From Escherichia coli (lineage in GTDB: Bacteria > Pseudomonadota > Gammaproteobacteria > Enterobacterales > Enterobacteriaceae): a stretch of DNA of 64,000 nt. Positions 5,785 to 7,041 of this stretch are shown piece after piece; position 1 is the stretch's first letter; each line of letters opens with the position of its first letter. A program made the position numbers and the translations under genes. The DNA lies in assembly GCF_003334785.1 (NCBI RefSeq), contig NZ_QOWV01000006.1. One strand, 5' to 3'. Below the pieces are notes generated by a model. The model did not search any database. It was not told the DNA's origin and was given only the letters and a program-made list of their open reading frames with translations.

Positions 5785-7041
5785 ATGGGATCTGATGCGA
5801 AAAACTTGATGAGCGACGGGAACGTGCAAATTGTTAAGACCGGCGAGGTCATTGGCGCGACGCAACTTACTGAAGGCGAGTTGATTGTTGAAGCTGGCGG
5901 AAGAGCCGAAAATACCGTGGTCACGGGGGCTGGCTGGTTGAAAGTGGCAACCGGTGGGATCGCCAAATGCACACAGTACGGTAACAATGGCACGCTATCG
6001 GTCAGCGATGGTGCCATTGCCACAGATATTGTTCAGTCCGAGGGAGGCGCAATTAGTCTCTCTACGCTCGCTACGGTTAATGGCCGCCATCCCGAAGGTG
6101 AATTCAGCGTTGATAAAGGTTATGCCTGCGGTTTGTTGCTGGAAAATGGCGGTAACCTGCGTGTACTGGAAGGACATCGCGCGGAAAAAATCATTCTCGA
6201 TCAAGAGGGCGGCCTGTTGGTTAATGGGACAACCTCAGCGGTCGTGGTAGATGAAGGTGGTGAATTGTTGGTGTATCCAGGTGGGGAAGCCAGCAATTGT
6301 GAGATTAATCAGGGCGGCGTTTTTATGCTGGCCGGGAAAGCCAGTGATACGTTGCTTGCTGGTGGCACCATGAATAATCTCGGTGGTGAAGACTCTGACA
6401 CTATTGTTGAGAATGGATCCATTTATCGTCTGGGGACGGATGGCCTTCAGCTCTACAGTTCCGGTAAGACGCAAAACCTGTCCGTGAATGTGGGTGGTCG
6501 GGCTGAAGTGCATGCCGGTACGCTGGAAAACGCGGTAATACAAGGTGGGACAGTGATCCTGTTGTCACCCACCAGCGCGGACGAAAATTTTGTCGTAGAG
6601 GAAGATCGCGCACCGGTTGAACTGACCGGGAGTGTTGCATTACTGGACGGCGCTTCAATGATTATTGGTTATGGCGCAGAGCTGCAACAATCAACGATTA
6701 CTGTACAGCAGGGCGGTGTGTTGATTCTAGACGGCAGTACGGTAAAAGGTGACGGTGTCACTTTCATTGTTGGTAACATCAATCTGAATGGTGGAAAACT
6801 GTGGCTGATCACTGATGCGGCAACGCATGTGCAACTGAAAGTGAAACGCCTGCGCGGAGAGGGAGCGATTTGCCTGCAAACCAGTGCAAAAGAAATTTCA
6901 CCTGACTTCATCAATGTGAAAGGGGAAGTTACCGGGGATATACACGTTGAGATAACAGATGCCAGTCGGCAAACTCTGTGTAACGCTCTGAAATTACAGC
7001 CAGACGAAGACGGGATTGGCGCAACGCTCCAGCCTGCGTAA
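5785..7041 (+). CDS. ydhQ: autotransporter-passenger-like (adhesin-related) protein YdhQ
   Basis: 418-aa Gly/Thr/Val-rich ORF with repeated GG-containing beta-strand-like units; matches ydhQ. Confidence 0.85.
   Translation: MGSDAKNLMSDGNVQIVKTGEVIGATQLTEGELIVEAGGRAENTVVTGAGWLKVATGGIAKCTQYGNNGTLSVSDGAIATDIVQSEGGAISLSTLATVNGRHPEGEFSVDKGYACGLLLENGGNLRVLEGHRAEKIILDQEGGLLVNGTTSAVVVDEGGELLVYPGGEASNCEINQGGVFMLAGKASDTLLAGGTMNNLGGEDSDTIVENGSIYRLGTDGLQLYSSGKTQNLSVNVGGRAEVHAGTLENAVIQGGTVILLSPTSADENFVVEEDRAPVELTGSVALLDGASMIIGYGAELQQSTITVQQGGVLILDGSTVKGDGVTFIVGNINLNGGKLWLITDAATHVQLKVKRLRGEGAICLQTSAKEISPDFINVKGEVTGDIHVEITDASRQTLCNALKLQPDEDGIGATLQPA

Follow-up and report, generated by a model that had tools for sequence, protein, structure and literature searches.

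In a 64,000-nucleotide window of an Escherichia coli genome (contig NZ_QOWV01000006.1 of assembly GCF_003334785.1), the gene ydhQ (positions 5785 to 7041, plus strand, stop codon included) encodes a protein of 418 amino acids that can be assigned with high confidence, on the basis of homology and predicted fold, to the passenger domains of AIDA/Ag43/YpjA-type autotransporters, of which it is a fragment by origin. We put the probability that YdhQ is now a functional intracellular protein, and not an adhesin, at roughly 60%. The gene, its annotation and the leaderless nature of its product were already known from databases and print, and what is added here are the boundaries of the insertion that carries it, the exact points of truncation, the strength of purifying selection and the link with heat shock and an intracellular location. 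Homology, fold, truncation points, the absence of export signals, conservation, selection and insertion boundaries come from the present analysis; sigma-32 dependence, protein detection, cytosolic fusions and RNA crosslinking are taken from published papers.

The limits of the coding sequence agree among the list of open reading frames (ORFs), RefSeq, where it is labelled ydhQ, 'AIDA repeat-containing protein', and the NCBIfam equivalog model NF007409, which aligned with residues 1-418 of 418 and scored 940.6 bits against a cutoff of 830. This model (PRK09945) is named 'hypothetical protein' and has no functional name. Partial NCBIfam matches were found to Ag43 (4.5e-25, residues 25-230), to AIDA-I (6e-15) and to the heptosyltransferase-target strand-loop-strand repeat model. 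AIDA-type strand-loop-strand repeats, recognized by both Pfam PF16168 and the Ag43 model, extend over residues 9-211 (5809 to 6417, plus strand), with Pfam matches at 9-48, 31-69, 99-159, 147-193 and 166-211, the best at 2.2e-22 and the others weaker. Further on lies a truncated Pertactin-like domain of the autochaperone region (PF03212; residues 329-403; 6769 to 6993, plus strand), in which the match takes in only model positions 1 to 78 of 121, at a weak E-value (2.5e-5). When 1.84 billion representatives were searched exhaustively with HMMER, 544 matches were obtained and, besides YdhQ fragments, nearly all of them were of autotransporter size or larger (1,000-6,000 amino acids), at about 30% identity. 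A profile built from YdhQ and trimmed homologues hit the solved passengers of Ag43, TibA, pertactin, IgA1 protease and Hap, all with E-values (1.7e-86 for 4kh3, Ag43) that are inflated by the Ag43-like segments in the profile.

Consistent with these matches, the AlphaFold2 model of YdhQ is an all-beta solenoid with a predicted local distance difference test score (pLDDT) of 90.7 and a predicted template modelling score of 0.88, and disorder is limited to residues 1-10 and to the loop 265-267. Foldseek placed it closest to Ag43 and TibA in the PDB (probability 1.0) and to YpjA/EhaD and Ag43 in the AFDB, so that repeats, model and structural neighbours all indicate a beta-helical passenger fold. 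The initial annotation had pictured a Gly/Val/Thr-rich protein with recurring GG units; the composition bears this out (G 15.3%, L 10.5%, V 9.1%, A 8.1% and T 7.9%), but the 14 GG dipeptides exceed the number in shuffled sequences (9.6 +/- 2.6) by only about 1.7 standard deviations, which is not significant alone. The GG count is only weakly above chance, and the passenger-like character of YdhQ rests on homology. No match was found in a library of defence systems, and a scan against PHROGs gave unannotated families only.

The annotation had also proposed that the beta-helix lacks a signal peptide and a translocator domain, and on this point homology, structure model, hydropathy and Pfam concur. 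No hydrophobic core of a Sec signal peptide was detected in the first 50 residues, where the highest 15-residue hydropathy window reaches 0.71, compared with 1.8-2.25 in six homologues that bear signal peptides, and the SignalP 6.0 result has been reported as negative (PMC13101318). The ATG at 5785 is the earliest start downstream of an in-frame stop in the ORF list, and a longer N-terminus is impossible because that stop (TAA, 5779-5781) lies two codons upstream. An overlooked signal peptide at an upstream start is thus not present, and no homology to a cytoplasmic enzyme family was found. The C-terminal 12-stranded barrel of type Va autotransporters (PF03797), which follows a linker helix, gave no Pfam match in YdhQ, and inspection of the 14 GG sites in the sequence showed no fit to the GGxGxD nonapeptide motif of RTX proteins exported by type I systems.

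Comparison with full-length autotransporters (P0154 and Ag43) showed that YdhQ is a collinear, truncated derivative. Residues 1-12 align within the passenger repeats, at about residue 180 of Ag43 and at residue 245 of P0154, a full-length autotransporter of 978 amino acids with Pfam matches to Pertactin at 519-634 and to the barrel at 717-956. Residue 416 aligns to P0154 residue 594, so that the Pertactin/autochaperone domain is incomplete, ending about 40 residues early, and the linker and the entire barrel are absent, with about 385 C-terminal residues missing relative to P0154. Judged from these alignments, both ends of the protein are cut, the start falling inside a passenger repeat and the stop inside the Pertactin/autochaperone domain. 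When seven autotransporters were used as tblastn queries, no relics of a signal peptide, passenger or barrel were detected in the flanks of ydhQ or in the rest of the window.

Published data bear on the location and regulation of the protein. YdhQ has been quantified by liquid chromatography-tandem mass spectrometry in proteomes (PMC6561319), and it figures among 17 previously unannotated proteins that orthogonal organic phase separation assigned to the RNase-sensitive, UV-crosslinked RNA-binding proteome (PMC11066096). It was also copurified with elongation factor Tu (EF-Tu) (PMC2672614). In an engineering study from 2026, YdhQ fusions without a signal peptide were fluorescent and cytosolic, and agarase fusions were inactive (PMC13101318). 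Lacking a signal peptide, YdhQ is unable to pass the inner membrane, and the lack of a barrel rules it out as an autotransporter. Because it has no route across the inner membrane, its leaderless fusions stay inside and the native protein crosslinks to RNA, we place YdhQ in the cytoplasm with reasonable confidence, and a cytoplasmic function is what we infer from this location. The suggestion in the initial annotation that the protein could be secreted or cell-associated by another route is not supported, given the cytosolic leaderless fusion, the RNA crosslinks, the reported heat-shock regulation and the lack of any known export signal.

With regard to that regulation, ydhQ is among the sigma-32 targets earlier reported by independent methods and was re-detected by chromatin immunoprecipitation (ChIP) (PMC2996942), belongs to the RpoH regulon set that served for a network analysis (PMC2710865) and was co-induced with ycjX, ycjF, yciS and yhdN during overproduction of a periplasmic single-chain variable fragment (PMC2868799). 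When the upstream region of 307 nucleotides was scored with the sigma-32 consensus CTTGAAA-N13-14-CCCCATNT, a single candidate promoter was found, GTTTAAA-N13-CACCATCT (5675 to 5702, plus strand), where 0.046 such matches were expected by chance. Its position derives from the consensus match and is treated as inferred, because conservation of the -10 element is confined to close Escherichia. The reported membership in the sigma-32 regulon fits a cytoplasmic, stress-related role.

Several observations weigh against an intracellular function under sigma-32 control. The candidate promoter agrees with the consensus at only 11 of 14 positions, its -10 element is kept in close Escherichia but changed in E. 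albertii (CACGATCT) and lost at locus L007, and the re-measured sigma-32 ChIP signal of ydhQ was modest, at 1.4 (PMC2996942). The protein (42.8 kDa, as computed from its sequence) is strongly acidic, with an isoelectric point of 4.4 that is unusual for a direct RNA binder, and the copurification with EF-Tu is weak evidence, since EF-Tu is a common contaminant; for these two reasons the lead toward RNA or translation is itself weak. The nonsynonymous rate (dN) of ydhQ is 5-10 times that of the neighbouring housekeeping genes. Two groups employ a ydhQ deletion as a neutral control or integration site, and no phenotype of the deletion is known. In addition, adding an exogenous signal peptide to a YdhQ fusion resulted in an extracellular reporter signal and apparent surface display (PMC13101318), and another paper states, citing Roux 2005, that ydhQ is needed in early adhesion and contains positively selected sites (PMC9110714). 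The former study, in which YdhQ is termed a 'leaderless autotransporter', does not discuss the absence of a barrel; the route of the cargo through the outer membrane with a barrel-less YdhQ is left unexplained there, and periplasmic leakage is a possible alternative.

These last two reports are among the arguments for the reading that YdhQ is a surface or secreted adhesin, released by a non-classical route, by lysis or in vesicles, and involved in early adhesion. The same reading could draw on the nearest relatives, which are self-associating adhesins, and on the name YDHQ in a COG3468 list from extracellular-vesicle proteomes, in addition to the stated adhesion role and site-wise positive selection (PMC9110714) and to the extracellular signal that appeared once a signal peptide had been added (PMC13101318). 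We nevertheless consider it unlikely, given that YdhQ has no Sec, Tat or lipoprotein signal, no barrel or linker and no GGxGxD motif, that crosslinking to RNA by UV requires an intracellular protein, and that control by sigma-32 fits a cytoplasmic role. Moreover, ydhQ is a core gene in K-12, a strain that, to our knowledge, is without type III and type VI secretion systems. The leaderless fusion also remained cytosolic and the agarase inactive (PMC13101318).

The possibility that ydhQ is an expressed but functionless leftover of a destroyed autotransporter gene has to be judged against its conservation. Among complete E. coli genomes, the locus was found by megablast in 5426 of 5426, with at least 80% coverage in 5425. 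The lone exception is AR_0013 (NZ_CP032204.1; locus L013, 3306-6223), in which ydhQ is split, by an inserted ISEcp1 transposase of the IS1380 family, into two pieces annotated as pseudogenes. An intact ORF of 1257 nucleotides is retained in a strain that ranks among the most divergent of the matches listed. Orthologues, which were gathered by exact-protein look-ups, have 418 amino acids in E. albertii and E. marmotae, where the order ydhR-tRNA-ydhQ-mdtK-ribC-cfa is the same, and a more distant taxon with 76% DNA identity (MdtK proteins 95% identical) carries an orthologue of 419 amino acids beside mdtK. A peptide-pattern scan of 100,044 species genomes detected one close Escherichia locus only. 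No frameshift or stop codon was present in any orthologue examined, and the sole indel across species is of one codon.

Ratios of nonsynonymous to synonymous substitution (dN/dS), calculated by the Nei-Gojobori method, were 0.06-0.13 across species, at synonymous distances (dS) from 0.25 to 1.2 and above: 0.09-0.13 among E. coli, E. marmotae and E. albertii, with dS of 0.8-1.2, and 0.06-0.11 relative to the 76%-identical taxon, with dS saturated. Within E. coli the ratio was 0.068. The neighbours mdtK, ribC and cfa gave 0.01-0.03, so that ydhQ evolves faster than these genes and yet is clearly constrained. In windows, the polymorphism ratio pN/pS is tightest at residues 81-140 (0.046) and loosest at 321-380 (0.49). 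Seven singleton E. coli alleles (P0003, P0007, P0008, P0009, P0012, P0013 and P0015) have in-frame deletions of 16-48 residues whose end points lie on short repeats (GG/GG, LDG/LDG and VNG/VNG); this looks like loss of 1-2.5 beta-helix rungs by slippage, although some of these alleles could be assembly artefacts.

The truncation of YdhQ at both ends relative to every full-length relative, the lack of a known deletion phenotype together with the use of the locus as a neutral site, the faster evolution and the rare in-frame losses of rungs speak for a functionless relic. On the other side stand the dN/dS of about 0.1 at dS near or above 1 and of 0.07 within E. coli, the single disruption by an insertion sequence among 5426 genomes and a frame that stays open at 418-419 amino acids out to the 76%-identical taxon. 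As a neutral ORF of 1.25 kb would not stay open over such divergence, we regard a functionless leftover as improbable. With high confidence, as judged from these comparisons, ydhQ is a protein-coding gene maintained by selection and not a decaying one. The term 'remnant' used in the initial annotation is thus apt for the ancestry, since the protein starts in a repeat and stops in the Pertactin domain, and inapt in the sense of a decaying relic.

It is very improbable that YdhQ is the passenger of a split system, handed to a separately encoded barrel or usher that acts as a translocator in trans. The retention of most of the Pertactin/autochaperone-like region, which normally precedes the barrel, would suit such an arrangement, and some passage through the outer membrane would be required for the 'display' reported after a signal peptide was added. 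The neighbours of ydhQ are, however, tRNA-Val genes, ydhR and mdtK, with no adjacent barrel gene, the seven-autotransporter tblastn search detected no other related sequence in the window, and, lacking a signal peptide, YdhQ would in any case be unable to enter the periplasm.

The region just upstream of the gene is itself highly conserved. The Shine-Dalgarno sequence AAGGA, read from the sequence at 5773 to 5777 (plus strand), stands 7 nucleotides before the ATG, with the TAA at 5779-5781 in between, and is unchanged at all five orthologous loci. About 45 nucleotides at the end of the 5' untranslated region (UTR) and the first 14 nucleotides of the ORF are almost invariant (segment 5740-5800, loci L001, L003, L005 and L007), and this near-invariance extends to the 76%-identical taxon. 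The N-terminus MGSDAKNL is conserved though predicted to be disordered. No stable fold or thermometer-like structure was found in the 5' UTR, which is less structured than its shuffles (z = +1.45), and no Rfam family was detected in the 5' region, the matches being limited to tRNAs and to artefacts antisense to tRNA. One paper lists ydhQ among computationally predicted targets of CsrA, and the GGA within its Shine-Dalgarno sequence would fit such targeting. That conservation reflects constraint on DNA or RNA (as a regulatory transcript, or through the spacing or insulation of mdtK from the tRNA promoter) and not on protein is hardly credible, despite the invariant 5' segment and the terminator common to ydhQ and mdtK, since synonymous sites near saturation with nonsynonymous sites evolving about 10-fold more slowly are the signature of selection on protein, the 5' region has neither a stable fold nor an Rfam family, and Salmonella and Enterobacter manage without the insert.

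If YdhQ is indeed a functional intracellular protein, its history could be reconstructed as follows. Some 415 residues of a type Va autotransporter passenger, reaching from the inner repeats into the Pertactin/autochaperone domain and ending two thirds of the way along it, would have survived in the Escherichia lineage, inserted as a single gene between mdtK and the valVW promoter, with a Shine-Dalgarno sequence, start codon, terminator and candidate promoter of their own. The product, a right-handed beta-solenoid that is acidic and soluble, would fold in the cytoplasm and remain there; its gene is reported to be transcribed within the sigma-32 heat-shock regulon and is kept intact by purifying selection on the protein. 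Its action would most likely consist in binding a cytoplasmic partner through the long faces of the solenoid, the published hints being RNA or the translation apparatus. The more specific proposal that a module of a secreted adhesin has been exapted as a heat-shock-inducible cytoplasmic solenoid, contacting RNA or the translation machinery or serving proteostasis through its flat faces, is offered tentatively, as one possibility that we would not yet favour over others.

The insertion itself could be delimited by comparison with other genera. Homology with Salmonella and Enterobacter breaks off at 7080/7081, where mdtK ends, and is found again from 5552, within the conserved promoter region of the tRNA genes. 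This defines a lineage-specific insert of about 1.5 kb (5553 to 7080) that separates mdtK from the valVW promoter region and comprises ydhQ, its terminator and 232 bp of its 5' region. Both genera are without ydhQ, and their tRNA-Val pair directly follows mdtK, with about 75 bp at the junction where E. coli has 1.5 kb. On this evidence ydhQ is a compact insertion of one gene, situated next to the tRNA genes on their promoter side.

We considered whether ydhQ occupies the tRNA-Val island slot, which in Salmonella is the site of Salmonella pathogenicity island 2 (SPI-2), and rejected this, as the islands lie 3' of the tRNA genes and ydhQ lies on their promoter side. The 3' side is a hot spot of recombination whose cargo differs between the genera: type III secretion genes of SPI-2 (ssaU side) in Salmonella (locus L011, 6514-11362), genes for HSP20, a glgS-like protein and type VI secretion in Enterobacter (locus L012, 6528-11374), and ydhR/ydhS in E. 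coli. An origin by truncation in situ of the closest full-length relative found, P0026/P0175 (38% identity to YdhQ in the best stretch), was likewise rejected because that relative is not at the ydhQ locus. P0175, a protein of 1538 amino acids with ESPR, AIDA and Pertactin matches, is encoded at locus L009/L010 (1846-12617, Enterobacteriaceae, from the sequencing project that also gave L007/L008), in an unrelated island that also carries a second autotransporter gene (1156 amino acids) and, between the two, a gene for an E3-ligase effector with a NEL domain.

Regarding the remaining features of the locus, the minus strand carries ydhS (3177-4781), ydhR (4907-5212), two tRNA-Val(GAC) genes, valV/valW (5320-5396 and 5401-5477), and mdtK (7082-8455), after which ribC and cfa come next in gene order. 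The gene mdtK is convergent with ydhQ, from whose stop codon only 40 bp separate it, and in this gap a bidirectional intrinsic terminator (7048 to 7073), found by a terminator scan as a hairpin on both strands, serves ydhQ on the plus and mdtK on the minus strand in common, with a stem of 10-11 bp, 7 GC pairs and T runs on both strands. Coordinates and terminator scan therefore agree with the earlier description of a 418-residue product beside a tRNA-Val pair and ended by a clean hairpin. The G+C content (0.50-0.53) is ordinary for E. coli. Before valV-valW, the region 5478-5552 is about 91% identical to Salmonella and Enterobacter and contains a sigma-70-like match, TTGCCA-17-TAATAT (minus strand, 5532-5504), which is presumably the promoter of the tRNA operon. 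Over the tRNA-Val genes or their antisense (5250-5477, plus strand), Rfam returned HPnc0260, above its gathering score, Plastid-ycf2 and YrlA; these look like cross-matches derived from tRNA and not separate RNAs. A FlhDC peak from genomic systematic evolution of ligands by exponential enrichment has been reported in the ydhQ/valV intergenic region (PMC9962212).

As for its significance, ydhQ is among the genes of E. coli K-12 that are still uncharacterised, and databases and papers have repeatedly filed it as 'adhesin' or 'autotransporter'. Because the protein has neither an export signal nor a barrel, these labels cannot describe how it works and are better dropped, and because the gene occurs throughout E. 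coli and is clearly under purifying selection, it is not junk. Experiments could thus be redirected to a cytoplasmic, stress-related role instead of adhesion assays, and caution is advisable in using YdhQ as a self-translocating display anchor, since a barrel-less route to the surface needs explaining. If an intracellular role is true, a fragment of a surface protein would have been recruited to a new compartment and a new regulon; if the exaptation is true, YdhQ would be a rare case of an autotransporter passenger that functions intracellularly and would extend the sigma-32 response in a genus-specific way, which, once confirmed, would be of greater interest than the already-known gene itself.

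In comparison with known systems, NF007409 (PRK09945) is YdhQ's own family, from which it shows no difference, and the protein fits no defined autotransporter class, having the passenger fold without the signal peptide, the barrel or a complete autochaperone domain. The autotransporters YpjA/EhaD, YcgH and P0154/P0106 (27-33% identity) are collinear with all of YdhQ, including the Pertactin-like region, and share with it the post-repeat junction GGxMxNxGGxD...YxLG..., P0106 being essentially YdhQ plus about 70 N-terminal and 285 C-terminal residues; unlike YdhQ, these proteins have signal peptides, complete Pertactin domains and PF03797 barrels. Passenger-only, barrel-less ORFs like ydhQ also occur as autotransporter pseudogene fragments of E. 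coli (P0069 cluster), but these vary widely in length across genomes (150-1165 amino acids), as expected of decay, whereas ydhQ is uniform in length, occurs universally and evolves under purifying selection. Ag43 (Flu), AIDA-I and TibA resemble YdhQ in their AIDA-type strand-loop-strand repeats and right-handed beta-helix. Relative to Ag43, YdhQ is without the signal peptide and its extended region, the first 180 or so passenger residues, the cleavage/linker region and the beta-barrel. Self-association or adhesion is known for Ag43, AIDA-I and TibA but not for YdhQ, whose exposure at the surface is disfavoured by the indirect evidence of RNA crosslinking and cytosolic leaderless fusions. Finally, Ag43-type genes are phase-variable and belong to prophages or islands, whereas ydhQ is a core gene listed under sigma-32.

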